Of a DNA stretch of 40,445 nt, positions 1 through 40,445 are shown in pieces (within the stretch, counting starts at the first letter, position 1; every line of letters begins with the position of its first letter). The stretch is from Planctomycetaceae bacterium (GTDB lineage: Bacteria; Planctomycetota; Planctomycetia; Pirellulales; UBA1268). The DNA lies in contig JBJTPA010000133.1 of assembly GCA_046074885.1 (NCBI GenBank), forward strand, positions 1 through 40,445, given 5' to 3'. Made by a program: the position numbers and the translations under genes. Below the pieces are notes generated by a model that saw nothing but the letters and a program-made list of their open reading frames with translations, made no database searches and was not told the origin of the DNA.

Positions 1-471
1 CTGGGCCGCCTCGACGCGCAGACGACCACGCAGCTGCGGCAGCAGCTGCGGAAGAAGCGGATCCACCTCCAGCTCGTGAAGAACAGCCTGGCGCAGCGGG
101 TCGTGGCGGGTACGCCGCTCGAGCCTGCGTTCGCGAAGGCCGAGGGCATGCTGGCCGTCGCCTGGGGCGGCGAGGACGTCGTCGATCTTGCGAAGGAGCT
201 GGACCGCCTCGCCGGGGTCAAGGACTTCGAGGGCTTCGAGTGCCGGGGTGGCGCCCTGGACGGCTCGCGGCTCGAGCCCGCCGACGTGAAGCGGGTGGCG
301 AAGTGGCCGACCCGGGCGGAGCAGCTGTCGGTGCTCTCCGGGCAGATCTCGTCCCTGGCCGGCCGGCTGGCGGGCCAGATCGCCGCGGCCGGCGGCGTCC
401 TGGCCGGGCAGATCAAGTCCCGGGCCGAGGACCTCGAAAAGGCGGCCGGCGGCGAGGCTCCGGCGGCGTGA
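1..471 (+). CDS. rplJ: 50S ribosomal protein L10, 5'-truncated by window edge
   Basis: Frame 1 is open from nt 1 (LGRLDAQTTTQLRQQLRKKRIHLQLVKNSLAQR...), so track ORF 76..471 is only the part after an internal GTG. L10-like core with an Ala/Gly-rich C-terminal helix. Lies directly upstream of rplL-rpoB-rpoC. Confidence 0.85.
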   Translation: MGRLDAQTTTQLRQQLRKKRIHLQLVKNSLAQRVVAGTPLEPAFAKAEGMLAVAWGGEDVVDLAKELDRLAGVKDFEGFECRGGALDGSRLEPADVKRVAKWPTRAEQLSVLSGQISSLAGRLAGQIAAAGGVLAGQIKSRAEDLEKAAGGEAPAA

Positions 472-572
472 GGCGGGGTCCCGCCGGGGTTTTCCCGCGC
501 GGGGCTTCACTCTGGCGAAACACGTGGTAAGACATAGGGCTCCCCTCTTTTTCCGTGAAAGGATCTCGAGCG

Positions 573-1001
573 ATGGCAACGGCTGAAGCGACGCGTGAAT
601 TCTCCAAGGAGACCAAGGATCTTGGCGACAAGATCGTCGGTCTGACCCTCAAGGCGGCGAAGGAGCTGTCGGACTACCTCGACGAGGTCCACGGGATCAA
701 GCCGGCCGCGGGCGGCGCGGTCATGATGGCCGCTCCGGCCGGTGGCGCCGGCGGTGCCGCCGGCGGCGGCGAGGCGGCTGCCGAGAAGACCGAGTTCGAC
801 GTCGTGCTGGAGAGTTATCCGGCCGACGCGAAGATCGGCATCATCAAGGTCGTCCGCGCCGCCACGGGCCTGGGCCTCAAGGAGGCCAAGGATCTGGTCG
901 AGGGCGCCCCGGCGAAGGTCAAGGAGGGTATCTCCAAGGCCGACGCCGAGAAGCTGAAAAAGGAACTGGAGGAGGCGAAGGCGAAGGTCGCGATCAAGTA
1001 G
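573..1001 (+). CDS. rplL: 50S ribosomal protein L7/L12
   Basis: N-terminal dimerisation helix, Ala/Gly hinge ([19 protein letters not shown]), then C-terminal domain [69 protein letters not shown] 573 preferred over the in-frame GTG 555 of the ORF track; start uncertain. Confidence 0.92.
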
Positions 1002-1017
1002 CGAAACCGTCTTGATT

Positions 1018-1050
1018 TCCGGGTTCCGGCCGAGTGGTTGGCCGCCCGGA
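1018..1050 (+). terminator. Possible rplL-rpoB intercistronic hairpin (attenuator-like)
   Basis: TCCGGG(1018-1023)/CCCGGA(1045-1050) outer stem and CGGCC(1027-1031)/GGCCG(1040-1044) inner stem. Followed by an unusually AT-rich stretch (GTTGAAACGGTATAGTATTTG). A partial terminator is known at this position in the E. coli operon. No clean U-tract. Confidence 0.25.
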
Positions 1051-1283
1051 GTTGAAACGGTATAGTATTTGCGTCCCTCGTCGCCGCCCCTTGCCCAGCC
1101 CGCCCGTCCTGTCATTGCCGTGGTCGTTCCGTCCGGCGCCCGTGTCGGGCCGGCGGGGCGACGAGCCTGTTCCCGGTTCGGTCGCCGCGCCCCGTCGCCG
1201 GCTCGCCGCCCCGGGAGCCTGACGCCTCCGCGGCCTCCGCGCCGCGCGGCGTTCGCCGCACACTTCCGAGGAGCATCCTGTTC

Positions 1284-5045
<3,762 letters not shown>

Positions 5046-5110
5046 CGAGCGTTCGGCGTCGGATGGCAGTGTGTTCGGGCGCGTTCGGAAAATACAAAGG
5101 GAGATGACAC

Positions 5111-9424
<4,314 letters not shown>

Positions 9425-9553: not shown

Positions 9554-10498
9554 ATGAGCGGCACGAGACAGCGGCGGAACTGGGTCGTCCTCGAGGCGGA
9601 ATCGACGCCCGTCGGACGCGTCGCCGCCCGCACGATCCGCGCCCGGCTCGAGGCCGTCTGGACGGAGCTGCGGGCGGCGGTGCGCGGGCCGGTGGACGCG
9701 GAGAGCGTGCACCGGCTGCGGGTGGCGACGCGGCGGACGCTCGCGGCCTTCGAGGCGTTCGCCGACCTCCTCCCCGGGAAGCGCACCGCCTGGTTCTCCC
9801 GACGGTTGCGTGAACTGCGGCGGGTCGCGGGTGACGCGCGAGACCTCGACGTGCTCACGGGCCGGCTGGCCGCCCGGCCACCCACGGACGCCGGCCTCAA
9901 ATCCAAGGCCGCGGCGGCCCGCGGCCGGCTCGTCGCCATGCTCGCCCGGCAGCGCGACGTCTCGCGCGAACCGATCCGCGACCTCCACGACCGGCTCGCC
10001 GCGGCCGGCTGGGAGGAGCGGGTCGAGGAGTTTCTCGCCCGGATCCCGTCGGGGTCGCGGCAGCCGTCGTTCGCGGCATACGCCCGGGAGTGCTTCGCGC
10101 CGCTCGTGGATCGCTTCTTCGCCAAGGCCGACCGCCGGCTCCGCGACGACGACGACGTCCACCGGCTGCGGATCGCCGGCAAGAAACTCCGCTACGCGCT
10201 CGAGATCTTCGCGCCGGTGGTTCCGCAACGCGCCCGCGCCCGCTGCCAGGACGCCCTCGAGCGGCTGCAGCACGTGCTCGGCGAGTTCACCGACCACGCC
10301 TCGGCCGCCGACCGCTTCCAACGGCTCGCCCGCGACGGCCGTACGGGCCTCGACCAGGAGGCGATCGACGACCTGCGGCGCGTCGAGGCGGCCGCGGCCG
10401 CGGAGGCGCGGAAAGCCTTCGTGCGCTGGTGGGACCGCGAGCGCCGTCGCGACCTGCGGCGGACGATCGAGCGATCCATCGGCCGGCGGTCGGCATGA
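9554..10498 (+). CDS. CHAD domain-containing protein
   Basis: Repeated CHAD-type histidine helices: VHRLRVATRRTLAAFEAF, RDLDVL, VHRLRIAGKKLRYALEIFAPV, LQHVLGEFTDH. ATG 9554 or in-frame GTG 9530. Confidence 0.8.
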   Translation: MSGTRQRRNWVVLEAESTPVGRVAARTIRARLEAVWTELRAAVRGPVDAESVHRLRVATRRTLAAFEAFADLLPGKRTAWFSRRLRELRRVAGDARDLDVLTGRLAARPPTDAGLKSKAAAARGRLVAMLARQRDVSREPIRDLHDRLAAAGWEERVEEFLARIPSGSRQPSFAAYARECFAPLVDRFFAKADRRLRDDDDVHRLRIAGKKLRYALEIFAPVVPQRARARCQDALERLQHVLGEFTDHASAADRFQRLARDGRTGLDQEAIDDLRRVEAAAAAEARKAFVRWWDRERRRDLRRTIERSIGRRSA

Positions 10499-11673
10499 GA
10501 CGCCATCGGCCCGCCGCCGCCAAGAGCGGGCCGGGCGCCCTCTTCGCCGCCGTCCTGACCGGCGTCGCGATCGTGACAGTCCTGGGGCTCGTCGGCCGCT
10601 GGGCGGCCGGGCGACGCCCTGCGACGGCGACTCGACCGGCATCGGAGGCCACCGCGGCCGTCGTCGGGTTGCGAGAGACGCTGCCCGGAGCGGCCGCCGC
10701 CCCGTCACCGGCTCCCGAGGGCATGGTGTGGATCCCGGGCGGAGAGTTCTCGATGGGCTGCACGGACCCGCGCGGCATGCCCTTCGGCGGCACCGACCCG
10801 ATGGCGGACGCGCGGCCGATCCACCGCGTCCGCGTCGGCGGCTTCTGGATGGACGCGACCGAGGTGACGAACGACCAGTTCGCCGCCTTCGTGACCGACA
10901 CCGGGTACGTGACGGTCGCCGAGCGCCCGCCGCGGGCCGAGGACTTCCCCGACGCGCCGCCGGAGAACCTCGTGGCCGGCTCGATCGTGTTCACGCCGCC
11001 GGATCGCCCCGTGCCGCTTCGCGACGCGACCGGCCAGGCGCACCTCCAGTGGTGGGCCTACGTGCCGGGCGCCAACTGGCGGCATCCGTCCGGGCCCGCC
11101 AGCGACCTCGCGGGCCGCGGTCGCGAGCCGGTCGTCCACGTGGCCTTCGAGGACGCCGAGGCTTTCGCCCGCTGGGCCGGCAGGCGGCTCCCCACGGAGG
11201 CCGAGTGGGAGTTCGCGGCCCGCGGCGGGCTGACGGGCCAGCCGTATCCGTGGGGCGAAGAGTTCAAGCCCGGCGGCCGATGGATGGCGAACACCTGGCA
11301 GGGCCGCTTCCCCGGCGAGAACACGGCCGCCGACGGCTTCGCCGGCCTCGCGCCGGTCGGCTCGTTCCCGGCCAACGGCTACGGCCTCCACGACGTGTCG
11401 GGCAACGTCTGGGAGTGGTGCGCCGACTGGTATCGCCCCGACACCTACGCGGTCGATGCCGGTCCCGACGGCGCGCAGGTCGCCGCGGATCCGCGCGGGC
11501 CTTCCGCCAGTTTCGACCCGCAGGAGCCGGGCCAGCCGAAGCGCGTGCAGCGGGGCGGCTCGTATCTCTGCAGCGACCAGTACTGCTCCCGCTACATCGT
11601 GGGCACGCGCGGCAAGGGCGAGATCTCGAGCGCCACGAACCACATCGGCTTCCGGTGCGTGAAGGAGCCGTAG
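10495..11673 (+). CDS. Formylglycine-generating enzyme (FGE/SUMF1 family), N-terminal membrane anchor
   Basis: GMVWIPGGEFSMGC, HRVRVGGFWMDATEVTNDQFAAFV, LPTEAEWEFAARGG, GNVWEWCADWY, and the catalytic Cys pair in RGGSYLCSDQYCSRY. ATG 10495 overlaps the CHAD stop (ATGA). The track ORF start at 10090 is an upstream alternate-frame extension into the CHAD gene. Confidence 0.88.
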   Translation: MRRHRPAAAKSGPGALFAAVLTGVAIVTVLGLVGRWAAGRRPATATRPASEATAAVVGLRETLPGAAAAPSPAPEGMVWIPGGEFSMGCTDPRGMPFGGTDPMADARPIHRVRVGGFWMDATEVTNDQFAAFVTDTGYVTVAERPPRAEDFPDAPPENLVAGSIVFTPPDRPVPLRDATGQAHLQWWAYVPGANWRHPSGPASDLAGRGREPVVHVAFEDAEAFARWAGRRLPTEAEWEFAARGGLTGQPYPWGEEFKPGGRWMANTWQGRFPGENTAADGFAGLAPVGSFPANGYGLHDVSGNVWEWCADWYRPDTYAVDAGPDGAQVAADPRGPSASFDPQEPGQPKRVQRGGSYLCSDQYCSRYIVGTRGKGEISSATNHIGFRCVKEP

Positions 11674-36367: not shown

Positions 36368-36378
36368 GCCGAAGGTTC

Positions 36379-36468
36379 GGAGAGGTGGCAGAGCGGTCGA
36401 ATGCGCGTCTTTGCTAAAGACGTGTCCGGTCAAAAGCTGGACCGCGGGTTCGAATCCCGCCCTCTCCG
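36379..36468 (+). tRNA. tRNA-Ser (anticodon GCU)
   Basis: Acceptor GGAGAGG/CCTCTCC, 3-bp D stem GCA/TGC, anticodon stem CGTCT/AGACG with loop TTGCTAA. Long variable arm (class II), T arm GCGGG-TTCGAAT-CCCGC, discriminator G. No encoded CCA. Confidence 0.93.
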
Positions 36469-36647
36469 TTTTTCGGTTTCGCGCTCCGGCGCAATGAGCC
36501 GCCGGGCGTCAGGCCCGGCCTGAATGACCCGCGGGCCCAGGTGCGGCGTAGGAGCGGGAGGCTGCCACCATCGCCATCCCGGCCCAGGGTTTGCCAGTTT
36601 GCCCCTGGCGGCATTCGTTCTCGTCTTTTTCGGACGAGGTGCGCACC

Positions 36648-37677
36648 ATGGCGGACGACGACGCGAGCGGGAATGGCGTGGACGGCCGGGGGGTCTGCGG
36701 GCCCGGGCCGCGGTTACTCGACCGCGTTCGACGCGCGATCCGGCTCCGGCATCTTTCGCCGAGCACCGAAAAGGCCTACGTGCACTGGGCCAAGCGATTC
36801 ATCCTGTTTCACCATAGGCGGCCGCCCCGGGGAGATGGGTGAGGAGGAGGTGCGGGAGTTCCTCACCCACCTCGCCGTCCGTGGTAATGTGGCCGCTTCA
36901 ACACAGAATCAGGCTCTTGCGGGCCTGTTGTTCCTCTACGAGAGGGTGCTCGAGCGACCGCTCCAGGATCTGGGGCCCGTGGTGCGGGCGAAGCGGCCGA
37001 CGCGGCTGCCGTCCGTGCTGAGCCCGGAGGAGGTGCAACGGGTGCTCGGCTGCCTCAAGGGGCAGAATTGGATCGTGGGCATGCTGCTCTACGGGGCGGG
37101 GCTCAGGCTGCTCGAGGCCCTGCGGCTGCGGGTCAAGGACCTCGACATGCAGCGATCGGAACTCTTGGTTCGGGAGGCCAAGGGCAACAAGGATCGTGTG
37201 ACGGTGATGCCTGAGTGCCTGCGGAAGCCTCTCGCGAGGCATCTCGAGGAGCGACGCCACTGCCACTTGTTGGAAGTGGACAGGGATCGGGGCCGGGTGG
37301 TGCTGCCGGGCGCGTTTGCCCGCAAGAACCCGGCGGCCGAGCAGGATTGGGTCTGGCAGTGGGTGTTTGCGGCGAAGACGGACTTCCGGGATCGGGAGAC
37401 GGGCCGTTTCTACCGCCATCATCTGCACGAGACGGCGATCCAGCGGGCGGTGCGGGAGGCCGTGATCAAGGCGGGGATCACGAAGCGGGCGACGTGTCAC
37501 ACGTTTCGTCATTCCTTTGCCACCCACCTCCTGTTGGACGGCTACGACATCCGCACGGTGCAGGAACTGTTGGGGCACAACGACGTGAAGACCACGATGA
37601 TCTACACCCACGTGCTGAACCGCGGCGGCCGTGGCGTCCGCAGCCCCGCCGACCGCTTGGCCGGGCCGTCCTCCTGA
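36648..37677 (+). pseudogene. intI: Integron integrase IntI, interrupted by a +1 frameshift near nt 36825-36832
   Basis: N-terminus in the frame of ATG 36648 ([38 protein letters not shown], stop at 36840). The rest is in the next frame ([29 protein letters not shown]...). Tyr-recombinase motifs [55 protein letters not shown]. IntI-specific insertion [24 protein letters not shown]...RHHLHE. Confidence 0.88.
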
Positions 37678-37766
37678 CCTCCGCCGTGGCGACAGTGGCC
37701 CGAGCGATCCGCGGCAAGTCGGAGACGGCCGGGCCTAGGCACGCTGCGTCTCCCGGCCGCCAATCT

Positions 37767-37794
37767 TTGCGATCCCGTTTATCCAGTAGATAAT
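37767..37794 (+). promoter_or_regulatory. Candidate cassette promoter (Pc-like)
   Basis: TTGCGA (37767-37772), N16, GATAAT (37789-37794). Lies between the intI stop and the first cassette and points into the array. Cassette 1 has only 18 nt between its boundary and its ATG, so it needs an external promoter. Confidence 0.3.
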
Positions 37795-37849
37795 GCGGCC
37801 AAGGCGTCCACGGATACGCATCGCGTCGCAACGGAACCAAAGTCGCCAC

Positions 37850-37940
37850 AAAGACTTTCTCTTGCGACGCCCTCGACCATCCGTCACGTTATCGAGCCAA
37901 GCCGGCCGGCTTCCAAGGGCCGCACAATCACTGGTTCGAC
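37850..37940 (+). other. attI region; crossover core GTTCGAC at 37934-37940
   Basis: GTTCGAC (37934-37940) is the exact reverse complement of R'' GTCGAAC (38222-38228) of the first attC, which defines the attI/cassette-1 junction (G|TT at 37934|37935). The extent of attI upstream of the core is a guess. GTT-containing half-site-like words occur at 37887 (GTTATCG) and 37828 (ACGGAAC). Confidence 0.45.
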
Positions 37941-37952
37941 CGAAAACACGCT

Positions 37953-38213
37953 ATGGGCTTGAGCACCGTTGAGTTGATCATGGCCGTCGAGGACGAGTTC
38001 GGCATTGAGCTCGCGGAAGCCGATGCAGCAAAGCTCGCGGTGCTTGGTGAAATGCACGCGCATATTGTTCAAGCGATTCGGCAGCGTGGCGAGTCTCCCA
38101 ATGAGACAGATGTGTGGGAAAGACTGAGGGCCATCGTCGTCGAGCAGCTCGGTGTCCAACCTGCCGAGGTGACGCGAGCAGCACATCTCGTCAAAGATTT
38201 AGGAGCCGACTGA
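37953..38213 (+). CDS. Cassette 1 ORF: ACP-like (phosphopantetheine-binding-fold-like) 86-aa protein with permuted segment order
   Basis: Residues 1-45 (GLSTVELIMAVEDEFGIELAEADAAKLAVLGEMHAHIV) resemble ACP helices II-IV. Residues 50-86 (VWERLRAIVVEQLGVQPAEVTRAAHLVKDLGAD) resemble ACP helix I up to the DLGAD of the DSL motif. Confidence 0.6.
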   Translation: MGLSTVELIMAVEDEFGIELAEADAAKLAVLGEMHAHIVQAIRQRGESPNETDVWERLRAIVVEQLGVQPAEVTRAAHLVKDLGAD

Positions 38214-38221
38214 CAAATCTG

Positions 38222-38309
38222 GTCGAACAAGGCAATGCAGCGGACTCGCGATAAAATCGGTCCTGATGGAGACTCCAAGGTCGCGAGCCGCTGATTGCCG
38301 GCGTTCTGG
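38222..38309 (+). repeat. attC site 1 (88 bp)
   Basis: R'' GTCGAAC (38222-38228), R' GTTCTGG (38303-38309). Stems GGCAAT/ATTGCC, CAGCGG/CCGCTG and CTCGCGA/TCGCGAG, with single bulged G and A on the R'' arm. Confidence 0.85.
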
Positions 38310-38323
38310 ATACCGGGTTCGCC

Positions 38324-38352
38324 TTGGCCTGATGCCTGTTCTCGCGTACACT
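38324..38352 (+). promoter_or_regulatory. Candidate cassette-internal promoter (cassette 2)
   Basis: TTGGCC (38324-38329), N17, TACACT (38347-38352), 28 nt upstream of the antitoxin ATG. Confidence 0.35.
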
Positions 38353-38380
38353 TGGATATGCCCTTGGTGAGACCCCATCC

Positions 38381-38587
38381 ATGACCAGTGCCGTCCGCGA
38401 CCTTCTCCGGTCCTTTCAGTCGCTCAGCGATGCGGAAAAGCATGAAGCTGCCAGCCTGCTGCTGAGGCAGGTCGTGCAGGGCGAAGCGGGCGACATAGGC
38501 AACGATGCTCTTGTCGCCGTCGCCGAGGAGTTGTTTCTCGACCTAGACGCGCGAGAGGCTGGCGATGGCGAATCCTCTCCGCGGTGA
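38381..38587 (+). CDS. Cassette 2: putative antitoxin (68 aa)
   Basis: Small acidic ORF immediately upstream of the MazF/PemK-like toxin and overlapping it by 23 nt. No motif recognised beyond context. Confidence 0.6.
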   Translation: MTSAVRDLLRSFQSLSDAEKHEAASLLLRQVVQGEAGDIGNDALVAVAEELFLDLDAREAGDGESSPR

Positions 38588-38882
38588 AGTGTGGCTCGTC
38601 GACCTGGGCATGGTCGCAAAGATCCGGCCCTGCTTGATATTCAGTGTCCCGGCGGTTGGCCCCAATGACAGGGTGCTCGCGACCGTTGTCGCCCACACAA
38701 CAAGCGCGAGGGGATCTGGTTTTGAGGTCGCGGTTCCAGCCCAATTCCTAAAGCCAGGCGTCTTTGATGCGCAGAACATCATCTCGATCCCACACGCCAA
38801 ACTTGTGCGGCGCCTTGGCGTGCTGGCACCCGACCAGATGGATGCGGTTGCGACGGTTGTTCGTAAATGGCTTGGCCTGTAG
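38565..38882 (+). CDS. Cassette 2: MazF/PemK-family type II toxin (endoribonuclease)
   Basis: N-terminal RGEVWLVDLG...KIRPCLIFS and overall ~105-aa SH3-like pattern typical of PemK/MazF. Confidence 0.82.
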   Translation: MANPLRGEVWLVDLGMVAKIRPCLIFSVPAVGPNDRVLATVVAHTTSARGSGFEVAVPAQFLKPGVFDAQNIISIPHAKLVRRLGVLAPDQMDAVATVVRKWLGL

Positions 38883-38892
38883 CGGTGTGAGT

Positions 38893-38982
38893 CCAGAACC
38901 ACGCGATGCAATGGACTCGCGGGCATCATCGTGGGCGATGGTTGAGTCGGGGGCCGCGAGCCATTGATCGCCGATGTTCCGT
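38893..38982 (+). repeat. attC site 2 (90 bp)
   Basis: R'' CCAGAAC (38893-38899) is the reverse complement of GTTCTGG at the cassette-2 start. R' GTTCCGT (38976-38982). Stems GCGAT/ATCGC, CAATGG/CCATTG and CTCGCGG/CCGCGAG with bulged G and A. Confidence 0.9.
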
Positions 38983-38999
38983 GAGACAGTGAATCCGTT

Positions 39000-39473
39000 A
39001 TGAGTGCGATTTACGTCGAGACGTCGATTGTTGGGTACCTGACCGCTCGATCCGCGTCCGACGTTGTATTTCAAGCCCGCCAAGAACTGACACGTCGCTG
39101 GTGGCAACAGCGTCGCGAGGGATTTGACCTCTACATCAGCCAGTTGGTGCTTGATGAGGCTGGGGCGGGCGATCCCGCGGCAGCAGCGGACCGCCTGCGT
39201 CTCCTCGAAGGCTTGCCGCTCCTTGGCGAATCGGCGGAAGCTGACCGACTTGCCGATCTCCTCATCGCCCGGCATCTGTTGCCAGAAAAAGCAGCGGCAG
39301 ATGCCCAGCACGTCGCCTTGGCGGCCACCGCTGGCGTAGACTACTTGCTGACTTGGAACTGCAAGCACATCGCAAATGCGGATTTGCTGCCCGCCCTGTA
39401 CGAGACGTTCAGAGCCGAAGGGTTCCTGCCGCCGCTGATTGTCACGCCCGAGGAGTTCTCCGATGCTGGTTGA
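39000..39473 (+). CDS. Cassette 3: PIN-like (VapC-type) toxin-family protein, 157 aa
   Basis: IYVETSIVGYLTAR..., LVLDEAGAGD, AADAQHVALAATAGVDYLLTWNCKHIAN. Acidic residues lie at the positions expected for a PIN fold. Confidence 0.78.
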   Translation: MSAIYVETSIVGYLTARSASDVVFQARQELTRRWWQQRREGFDLYISQLVLDEAGAGDPAAAADRLRLLEGLPLLGESAEADRLADLLIARHLLPEKAAADAQHVALAATAGVDYLLTWNCKHIANADLLPALYETFRAEGFLPPLIVTPEEFSDAG

Positions 39474-39672
39474 ATCGCTTTACGCGGATCCCGTGGTGGC
39501 CGAAATCCACGAGGTGCGCCGTCGTCTCCTCGAAGCTTGTGGCGGCGAAGTCGCAGAGTTTCGGCGGCGGCTGCGTGAGCGGGAGAAGGCCTCCGGCAGA
39601 GAGATCGTGTCGGGCTCTGTGAAAAAGCACACGGAACCACGCGATGCAATGGACTCGCGGGCATCGTCGTGA
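39463..39672 (+). CDS. Cassette 3: small partner protein (putative antitoxin), 69 aa; last 14 codons lie inside attC 3
   Basis: ATG 39463 overlaps the end of the PIN-like ORF. MLVESLYADPVVAEIHEVRRRLLEACGGEVAEFRRRLREREKASGREIV. The stop at 39670-39672 is inside the attC. Confidence 0.6.
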   Translation: MLVESLYADPVVAEIHEVRRRLLEACGGEVAEFRRRLREREKASGREIVSGSVKKHTEPRDAMDSRASS

Positions 39673-39720
39673 ATGACGAGTAGCTCTGTGGCCGCGAGCC
39701 ATTGATCTTTGCCGTTAGCC
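39631..39720 (+). repeat. attC site 3 (90 bp)
   Basis: R'' ACGGAAC (39631-39637) is the reverse complement of GTTCCGT at the cassette-3 start. R' GTTAGCC (39714-39720). Same stem/bulge architecture as attC 2. Confidence 0.9.
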
Positions 39721-39733
39721 CACGGGTGAGACG

Positions 39734-39762
39734 TTGGCGGCGGTCGTCGCTGGCGGTATACT
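39734..39762 (+). promoter_or_regulatory. Candidate cassette-internal promoter (cassette 4), would give a near-leaderless mRNA
   Basis: TTGGCG (39734-39739), N17, TATACT (39757-39762). The antitoxin ATG at 39770 is 7 nt after the -10 element. Confidence 0.35.
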
Positions 39763-39769
39763 GACGTCC

Positions 39770-39970
39770 ATGGGCACAGTGGAAGAAATCGAAGCCGCGA
39801 TCCAGCAGTTGTCGCCTGACGATATGGCGGCGTTTCGCGCTTGGTATGCGGAGTTCGATGCGGCTGCGTGGGATCACCAGATCGCCGCTGATGATGCTGC
39901 AGGTCGGCTTGATTGGCTGGTCCAAGAAGCCCTCGACGACCTGGACGCAGGCCGCTGCACCGATCGATGA
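39770..39970 (+). CDS. Cassette 4: antitoxin (66 aa)
   Basis: MGTVEEIEAAIQQLSPDDMAAFRAWYAEFDAAAWDHQIAADDAAGRLDWLVQEAL. The stop overlaps the toxin ATG (ATGA). Confidence 0.7.
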   Translation: MGTVEEIEAAIQQLSPDDMAAFRAWYAEFDAAAWDHQIAADDAAGRLDWLVQEALDDLDAGRCTDR

Positions 39971-40230
39971 AGCATCGAGCAAGCCCGCGTTTCTGGCGTC
40001 ACTATCGGGCTTTGCCAGATGAGCTTCAGCAGTTGGCGGATCGCGGCTATCAGTTGCTGCTTCAGGATCCGCGTCACCCGTCCTTGCATTTCAAGCGGAT
40101 CGGAAGGCTTTGGTCGGTCCGTGTAGGACTGCATCATCGCGCGCTAGCGGTCGAACGTGATGGAGAGATGGTCTGGATCTGGATTGGTAGCCACGCGGAG
40201 TATGACCTATTGCTCCGACGCAAGGGCTAA
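39967..40230 (+). CDS. Cassette 4: RelE/ParE-superfamily type II toxin (87 aa)
   Basis: FWRHYRALPDELQQLADRGYQLLLQDPRHPSLHFKRIGRLWSVRVGLHHRALAVERDGEMVWIWIGSHAEYDLLL. The TAA stop (40228-40230) lies inside R'' of attC 4. Confidence 0.78.
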   Translation: MKHRASPRFWRHYRALPDELQQLADRGYQLLLQDPRHPSLHFKRIGRLWSVRVGLHHRALAVERDGEMVWIWIGSHAEYDLLLRRKG

Positions 40231-40314
40231 CCACACGATGCAAAGGACTCGCGGGCATCGTCGTGGGTGATTGCTAACCCGTGGGCCGCGAGCCTTTGAT
40301 CTTTGCCGTTCTGG
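40225..40314 (+). repeat. attC site 4 (90 bp)
   Basis: R'' GGCTAAC (40225-40231) is the reverse complement of GTTAGCC at the cassette-4 start. R' GTTCTGG (40308-40314). The middle stem is CAAAGG/CCTTTG, a compensatory double change relative to CAATGG/CCATTG in attC 2 and 3. Confidence 0.9.
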
Positions 40315-40342
40315 CGAGCCTCTGAGCATCCTCGGGTGATTG

Positions 40343-40445
40343 ATGAATCCAACCGTTTACCTCGAAACAACGATCATCGGCTACCTCGCGATGCAGCCCA
40401 GCGGCGTTCTACGGATCGCTGCCAACCAACAGACCACGCACGAAT
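40343..40445 (+). CDS. Cassette 5: PIN-like protein, paralog of the cassette-3 ORF, 3'-truncated by window end
   Basis: MNPTVYLETTIIGYLAMQPSGVLRIAANQQTTHE aligns with MSAIYVETSIVGYLTARSASDVVFQARQELTRR. Confidence 0.7.
   Translation, partial: MNPTVYLETTIIGYLAMQPSGVLRIAANQQTTHE

Follow-up and report, generated by a model that had tools for sequence, protein, structure and literature searches.

The window analysed here is the entire 40,445-bp contig JBJTPA010000133.1 of a metagenome-assembled genome (MAG) assigned to the Planctomycetaceae. Its right-hand end carries an integron integrase gene, intI, which is followed on the same strand by an attI site and by a series of gene cassettes with attC recombination sites. 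We regard this region, with very little doubt, as a sedentary chromosomal integron of the 'inverted-integrase' type. The elements on which this assignment is based are listed below in window coordinates; related loci and contigs are referred to by numbers with the prefix L or P.

36649–37677, + strand: intI, integron integrase gene, read in two frames (TIGR02249, Pfam, PDB 2A3V)
36825–36832, + strand: frameshift site CCCCGGGG within intI, one extra base compared to the intact relatives L095 and L003
37921–37940, + strand: attI core ACAATCACTG|GTTCGAC, crossover G37934|T37935
37935–38303, + strand: cassette 1, 369 bp, absent in L002 and present in nine other arrays
38222–38309, + strand: attC1, 88 bp (covariance model R1, 86.9 bits; model R2, 82.2 bits; fold)
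38304–38976, + strand: cassette 2, 673 bp
38893–38982, + strand: attC2, 90 bp (R1, 102.7 bits; fold)
38977–39714, + strand: cassette 3, 738 bp
39631–39720, + strand: attC3, 90 bp (R1, 99.6 bits; fold)
39715–40308, + strand: cassette 4, 594 bp
40225–40314, + strand: attC4, 90 bp (R1, 101.4 bits; fold)
40309–40445, + strand: cassette 5, cut by the contig end, with an open reading frame (ORF) from 40343

Frame 0 of intI (36649–36842) begins with MADDD and stops at the TGA at 36840. In the +1 frame, reading proceeds with PGEMGEEEV... as far as the stop codon at 37675–37677, and joining both frames at the CCCCGGGG run yields a protein of 342 aa. This frame-corrected IntI scored 431 bits against the integron integrase model TIGR02249 (cut-off 265) over positions 1–315 of 315, while the XerC, XerD and XerA models gave 137–160 bits against cut-offs of 220–335. 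The Pfam domains PF13495 and PF00589 were detected, and the protein aligned to residues 3–320 of VchIntIA (PDB 2A3V) with an E-value of 4e-77. The IntI-specific domain comprises VchIntIA residues 186–245 according to Cambray et al. (PMC3108266). In the protein studied here the integron-specific segment aligned without gaps to VchIntIA residues 202–244, with the equivalents of W219, H240 and H241 present, and the catalytic R, K, HxxR, H and Y motifs were invariant when IntI was aligned with ten homologs. The initial annotation, made from the letters alone, was hence right in calling an IntI-type tyrosine recombinase with the integron-specific segment.

The four attC sites form one repeat family, in which attC2 to attC4 are 79–83% identical and attC1 is more divergent. 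Their ends (AAC...GTT) are conserved, they share a 16-bp inner helix, and the pairing comprises 19 pairs with 75 of 75 pair cells being standard, including three compensatory pairs (CAGCGG/CCGCTG, CAATGG/CCATTG and CAAAGG/CCTTTG). As single-stranded DNA, the − strand of the attC sites folds into an imperfect hairpin with two 1-nt bulges (T and C) on its 3′ arm, the geometry that would be expected of a recombinogenic bottom strand. Recombination with attI has been described for the attC bottom strand only (PMC8352920). For detection, the covariance model R1 was built from the four attC sites of the window, and R2 from 77 sites. With R1, the four attC sites scored 87–103 bits on the + strand and 12–20 bits on the − strand, the next unrelated match in the window reaching 14.4 bits; over both models the ranges were 82–103 bits on the + strand versus 12–24 bits on the − strand. 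The matches at all four coordinates named in advance, at 87–103 bits, thus agree with the initial annotation, but they come from a self-built model and are circular to that extent. In related genomes, R1 found 70 further sites at E < 0.001. A search of the whole window against Rfam gave a tRNA as its sole match and no match for the attC sites.

The cassette borders had been derived from the complementarity between the R″ box of each attC and the 7-nt core opening the same cassette, with a transcription error named as a possible source of the pattern. All four pairs are exact reverse complements (GTTCGAC at 37934 with GTCGAAC at 38222; GTTCTGG at 38303 with CCAGAAC at 38893; GTTCCGT at 38976 with ACGGAAC at 39631; GTTAGCC at 39714 with GGCTAAC at 40225), and each complementarity extends one base further. 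The two boxes within a single attC agree at 3–5 of 7 positions only, and the chance of the 16 variable positions matching is about 4^-16 = 2e-10. This complementarity is symmetric: it delimits the cassette units and leaves the R′ end of the attC open.

Natural variants fixed the borders at the G|TT crossover that had been expected. The Logan contig L002 (run SRR29270187) corresponds to window positions 36441–37937 joined to 38303–38531 at 100% identity, with a 4-nt overlap, GTTC. It lacks cassette 1 precisely between the GTT of attI and the right-hand box of attC1, while the Logan contig L001 (run SRR29270188) has the cassette. The exact 86-aa protein of cassette 1 was found on nine further contigs (L083–L091), assembled from metagenomes of unrelated samples. 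In all nine, cassette 1 shows 97–99% nucleotide identity, the similarity starts at 37934 and ends at 38305–38309, other attC sites are located upstream and different cassettes lie on both sides. Because cassette 1 is absent in L002 and has the same borders in nine arrays, the cassettes behave as discrete mobile units. On the other side of the junction, ACAATCACTG|GTT is common to the window, L003, L098/L099 and L100. The similarity stops exactly at GTT, past which the first cassette is a different one in each of four loci (the window, L003, L098 and L100); contig L095 ends at GGTT. A metagenome scan with the attI 19-mer GGCCGYACAATCAMTGGTT returned 8 contigs, none with an intI homolog nearby, and these were discarded as chance matches.

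The L002 junction, the nine arrays with cassette 1 and the conservation of attI up to GTT fix the attC orientation: crossover takes place at the right-hand attC boxes, with the + strand as the top strand and attI on the 3′ side of intI. An arrangement with the attC sites inverted relative to the ORFs was rejected by the L002 junction and by the arm carrying the bulged bases. The proposal that intI lies on the same strand as its array was thereby borne out, as intI (36649–37677), attI (37934), the cassette ORFs and the attC top strands are all on the + strand. The initial annotation had further counted at least five cassettes separated by attC sites; there are four attC sites and four complete cassettes, the fifth being truncated by the contig end. 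The array does run off the window as had been noted, but the window is the whole contig, so that the assembly breaks inside the array.

We then considered 80 relative loci from GTDB genomes with IntI identities of 55–79%, which were searched with R2. The closest relatives are MAGs of the Pirellulales and Planctomycetia, and Acidobacteriota, Methylomirabilota/Rokubacteria, 'delta proteobacteria' and Chloroflexota are represented among the more distant. Matches to attC were obtained in 42 of the 80 loci, and in 39 of these 42 they were located downstream on the intI strand (127 matches). The classical arrangement, with attC sites upstream on the opposite strand, was found in 3 of the 42 (L075–L077, 56–58% identity, 6 matches); these loci serve as an internal control that R2 sees both layouts. 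Downstream matches on the opposite strand were found by R2 in none of the loci. Upstream matches on the same strand numbered 7, in L040 and L043, those of L040 belonging to the neighbouring tandem integron L039. Contig breaks within 1.5 kb of the intI 3′ end were seen 26 times, versus 3 at the 5′ side. Co-orientation of the integrase gene with its array is therefore the norm for this IntI clade. It is not a new architecture: the co-oriented layout was described before (PMC4889954, PMC3607928, PMC8352920), including for Planctomycetes. In Treponema integrons intI is transcribed towards attI (PMC3607928), and an 'inverted integron-integrase group' was discussed by Cury et al. (PMC4889954). The minority group named in the initial annotation is in this way supported indirectly, by the layout of the 39 loci and by these papers.

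Several findings count against this assignment or limit it. R1 and R2 derive from the attC sites of the window or from their own hits, so the scores in the window are not independent evidence. In model attC sites the extrahelical bases are T and G; here they are T and C on the bottom strand. The candidate promoter for the cassettes, described below, matches the consensus at 9 of 12 positions only, and the contig stops in cassette 5, before the far end of the array. Moreover, the reading frame of intI is interrupted, which the initial annotation had missed: a 1-nt insertion splits it into products of 64 and 275 aa. With a broken intI ORF, a complete and self-sufficient integron is not demonstrated. 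At the frameshift site the window reads gccCCGggg and the relatives L095 (85% protein identity) and L003 (79%) read gccGT-ggg. Since the same split into 64 and 275 aa occurs on L001 and L002, contigs assembled from two different runs, the frameshift is real and not a one-off assembly error. The alternative of an intact intI with a sequencing or assembly error in the GC-rich CCCCGGGG run would be favored by the single base concerned, the short homopolymer context and the 67% GC content, but the sequence is identical in the assemblies of both runs and in the MAG contig, and the change from GT to CCG compared to L095 and L003 is no plain difference in homopolymer length. We consider such an error improbable. 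With intI frameshifted, the integron may be integrase-defective, and normal levels of the resident integrase are probably not reached.

Located past codon 60, the frameshift cuts the catalytic domain off from most of the N-terminal domain. The MAG and both Logan assemblies carry it, and 43–46% of intI genes have been reported as inactivated (PMC3108266). All this would suit a decaying integron, with intI reduced to a dead pseudogene and with a fossil array that is turning into a CALIN, a cluster of attC sites lacking an integrase (PMC4889954); the differences between samples would then predate the frameshift or have arisen by homologous recombination between strains. Decay is a possibility with appreciable weight, yet one that we do not favor. 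There are no other lesions in intI, its catalytic and IntI-specific residues are all intact, and its identity to a full-length relative is 85%, which makes the lesion a very recent one. Furthermore, the variants with and without cassette 1 share the frameshift on flanks that are 100% identical, for which a site-specific loss or gain later than the mutation is the simplest explanation. The gain or loss of cassette 1 would then post-date the frameshift, as both variants carry it on otherwise identical DNA; alternatively, the frameshift allele could have spread between cassette-1 variants by homologous recombination. Turnover after the frameshift would need an integrase from elsewhere or rare +1 slippage on CCC-C. 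A trans-acting IntI is plausible in this clade because MAGs with two intI genes exist. On contig CAWFJP010000015.1 (L039/L040) two co-oriented intI genes lie about 18 kb apart, each with its own attC array, and in one Acidobacteriota MAG (L063/L064) there are two intI genes, located on separate contigs. Owing to the extra base, the local intI contains a CCC-C run (36825–36828) that is followed by GGG. It is conceivable, though we think it quite unlikely, that the frameshifted gene is alive and that a +1 slip of tRNA-Pro on CCC-C into the catalytic frame limits integrase synthesis by recoding. This would explain the precise gain or loss of cassette 1 at G|TT in populations that are all frameshifted; we know of no integron integrase under such recoding control.

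Two further alternatives concern the nature of the element, and the first of them requires its genomic context:

1284–5045: rpoB, on the same contig
5111–9424: rpoC, on the same contig
36378–36469, + strand: tRNA-Ser, anticodon GCT (ARAGORN; Rfam RF00005, 58 bits)

The integron lies in the chromosome, because rpoB, rpoC and scpB and the genes for a PolX polymerase and an M28-PDZ peptidase share its contig; no transposase was seen among the ORFs examined. The host part has a GC content of about 0.74, compared to 0.67 for intI and 0.57–0.61 for the cassettes. Positions 1–9000, with 0.63–0.70 versus 0.72–0.78 in the remaining host DNA, were considered as a foreign island, which was rejected as this low-GC part is the conserved rpoB-rpoC operon. 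The tRNA-Ser gene lies, as described initially, about 180 nt ahead of the element, the ATG of intI (36649) being 180 nt past it. An island integrase normally sits at this place, and one might envisage that a genomic island has inserted at the tRNA-Ser 3′ end, with the integron platform mobile as a unit. In L003 (79% identical), a different tRNA gene, tRNA-Lys(CTT) at 9679–9753, is located about 220 nt upstream of intI in the same orientation, so that there are 2 tRNA adjacencies in 81 loci compared to about 0.1 expected by chance (a rough estimate). Flanking synteny is also absent among the 80 relatives: homologs of the M28 peptidase, ScpB and NUDIX genes, used to check synteny at tRNA-Ser, were found in none of the fetched loci. 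The adjacency is real but not conserved, as L003 is the only one of the 80 GTDB loci with a tRNA beside intI and none was found in the closer relatives P0001 (85%), P0002 (86%), P0005 and P0006. Neither the 3′ end nor any other part of the tRNA gene is repeated over 15 nt or more within the window, the distal border of such an island being beyond the contig. Insertion as an island is, in our judgement, very unlikely. The second alternative, an ordinary Xer or phage integrase next to generic intergenic palindromes of the repetitive extragenic palindromic (REP) type, without any integron, could invoke that attC sites are imperfect palindromes and that the XerC and XerD models also match IntI. 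It is contradicted by the far higher score of the integron model relative to the Xer models and their cut-offs, by repeats that occur on a single strand and on only one side of intI, and by units that are bounded by G|TT and move as modules, and we rejected it as scarcely credible. The sedentary integron with co-oriented integrase thus remains the preferred reading.

Three further sequence elements flank or follow intI:

36599–36648, + strand: conserved block upstream of intI (TTGCCCCTG...), from the alignment of the upstream regions of the window, L003 and L095
37767–37794, + strand: candidate cassette promoter (Pc) facing the array, TTGCGA-16 nt-GATAAT (consensus scan)
37779–37793: perfect 15-bp palindrome TTATC-N5-GATAA, overlapping the −10 element of the candidate Pc, unique in the 40-kb window

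Judging from the alignment, the upstream block forms the left edge of the sequence common to related integrons, and it is a candidate region for the intI promoter (PintI). Of sigma-70-like sites, the candidate Pc is the sole one between intI and attI. Relatives conserve its −10 block, and it may drive the cassettes. No terminator-like site was found on the + strand in a scan from the intI stop codon to attI, so that read-through from intI is also possible. The palindrome occurs in 26 loci (the window, L003 at 11069–11083, L095 at 4823–4837, L116 at 6099–6113 and 22 others), once per locus, 67–184 nt past the intI stop codon and with a variable spacer, and nowhere else in 119 loci. Its carriers belong to the Planctomycete sub-clade in which the IntI proteins reach an identity of roughly 70% or higher. 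The palindrome might serve as an operator or as an accessory site for the binding of IntI.

The cassettes contain the following ORFs and one internal promoter-like site:

37953–38213, + strand: cassette 1, 86-aa protein resembling a circularly permuted acyl carrier protein (ACP)
38381–38587 and 38565–38882, + strand: cassette 2, 68-aa protein and overlapping PemK/MazF-like toxin (PF02452, E = 2.6e-12)
39000–39473 and 39463–39672, + strand: cassette 3, 157-aa and overlapping 69-aa proteins, no family match
39734–39762: promoter-like site inside cassette 4 (promoter scan)
39770–39970 and 39967–40230, + strand: cassette 4, 66-aa protein and, with an ATGA overlap, ParE-like toxin (PF24732, E = 1.2e-6)

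In sedentary chromosomal integrons, toxin-antitoxin cassettes are a typical finding. The cassette-5 ORF (40343–40445, MNPTVYLETTIIGYL...) encodes a paralog of the 157-aa protein of cassette 3, with similarity to its N-terminus (39000–39101, MSAIYVETSIVGYL...). The 157-aa protein and the cassette-5 protein matched nothing in Pfam, NCBIfam or PADLOC, and the PADLOC defence models matched none of seven cassette proteins. Exact-protein look-ups with the 157-aa protein and the PemK toxin of cassette 2 found no other copy.

Residues 54–86 of the cassette-1 protein match residues 4–36 of E. coli ACP and end exactly at DLGAD, and residues 2–31 match ACP residues 37–66. Gly replaces the Ser that bears the phosphopantetheine, and from its sequence the protein should be unable to carry acyl groups in the usual way. 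The family of permuted ACP-like proteins is small and comprises members of 86–88 aa with 63–95% identity, all of which have MGL at the N-terminus and DLGAD or DLGAN at the C-terminus. Two divergent members that were looked up, P0126 and P0128, are both located in attC-flanked arrays. AlphaFold modeled the cassette-1 protein with confidence as a helical bundle (pLDDT 86, pTM 0.78). A Foldseek comparison of the model with the PDB gave half-length ACP matches with an rmsd of about 0.5 Å and non-significant E-values, as is expected when a sequential aligner is applied to a permuted fold. A link between the permutation point and attC, as a trace of cassette genesis, was set aside because cassette ORFs always abut the boundaries, making the coincidence trivial. 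In the metagenomic array L092, a group II intron reverse transcriptase (RVT_1 and GIIM; 57–1484, − strand) is located directly upstream of a permuted-ACP cassette and on the opposite strand to it. Group II introns associated with attC sites are known, and the L092 arrangement recalls them.

Compared to known systems, the layout is alike that of inverted-integrase integrons of the Treponema denticola type and of the inverted IntI sub-clade (soil/freshwater group), and the likeness is one of layout; the host here is a Planctomycetaceae MAG of about 74% GC and intI is frameshifted. With the superintegron of V. cholerae the region shares the full-length alignment of IntI to VchIntIA, homogeneous sites (attC2 to attC4), toxin-antitoxin cassettes and a chromosomal location. 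In Vibrio, however, intI is divergent from the array, the attC sites measure about 120–130 bp instead of 88–90 bp, and arrays exceed 100 cassettes, whereas the contig studied here ends in cassette 5; related complete arrays look short, as in L116 with five + strand genes called after intI. A disrupted integrase gene is a feature of degenerate integrons of the CALIN/In0 type (Cury et al. 2016, PMC4889954). Unlike in these, intI is fully recognisable here and has a single 1-nt lesion, attI is intact and there is recent site-specific variation.

On this basis the element would operate as follows. Transcription of intI would run towards attI, past which the cassettes follow, each ending in an attC. 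By homology with VchIntIA and IntI1, the attC bottom strand, i.e. the − strand of the window, is predicted to fold into a hairpin, which IntI would bind and cleave at AA|C (G|TT on the top strand). Insertion would result from recombination of attC with attI, and excision from that of an attC with another attC or with attI. The cassettes might be transcribed from the promoter between intI and attI, by read-through from intI or, for the toxin-antitoxin cassettes, from promoters of their own. As the local intI is frameshifted, recent turnover would depend on IntI provided in trans or on rare slippage.

The layout, the phylum, toxin-antitoxin cassettes and the inactivation of integrases were all documented already, and the general knowledge on integrons is unchanged by these data. 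They add a cleanly delimited inverted-integrase integron from an uncultured, high-GC Planctomycete, in which the attI crossover and the cassette borders are fixed by natural variants and not by prediction alone. Further leads are the integron-specific palindrome over the candidate cassette promoter and the family of permuted ACP-like cassettes. Finally, cassette turnover in a population with a frameshifted intI bears on the question of how often integron arrays are serviced in trans.

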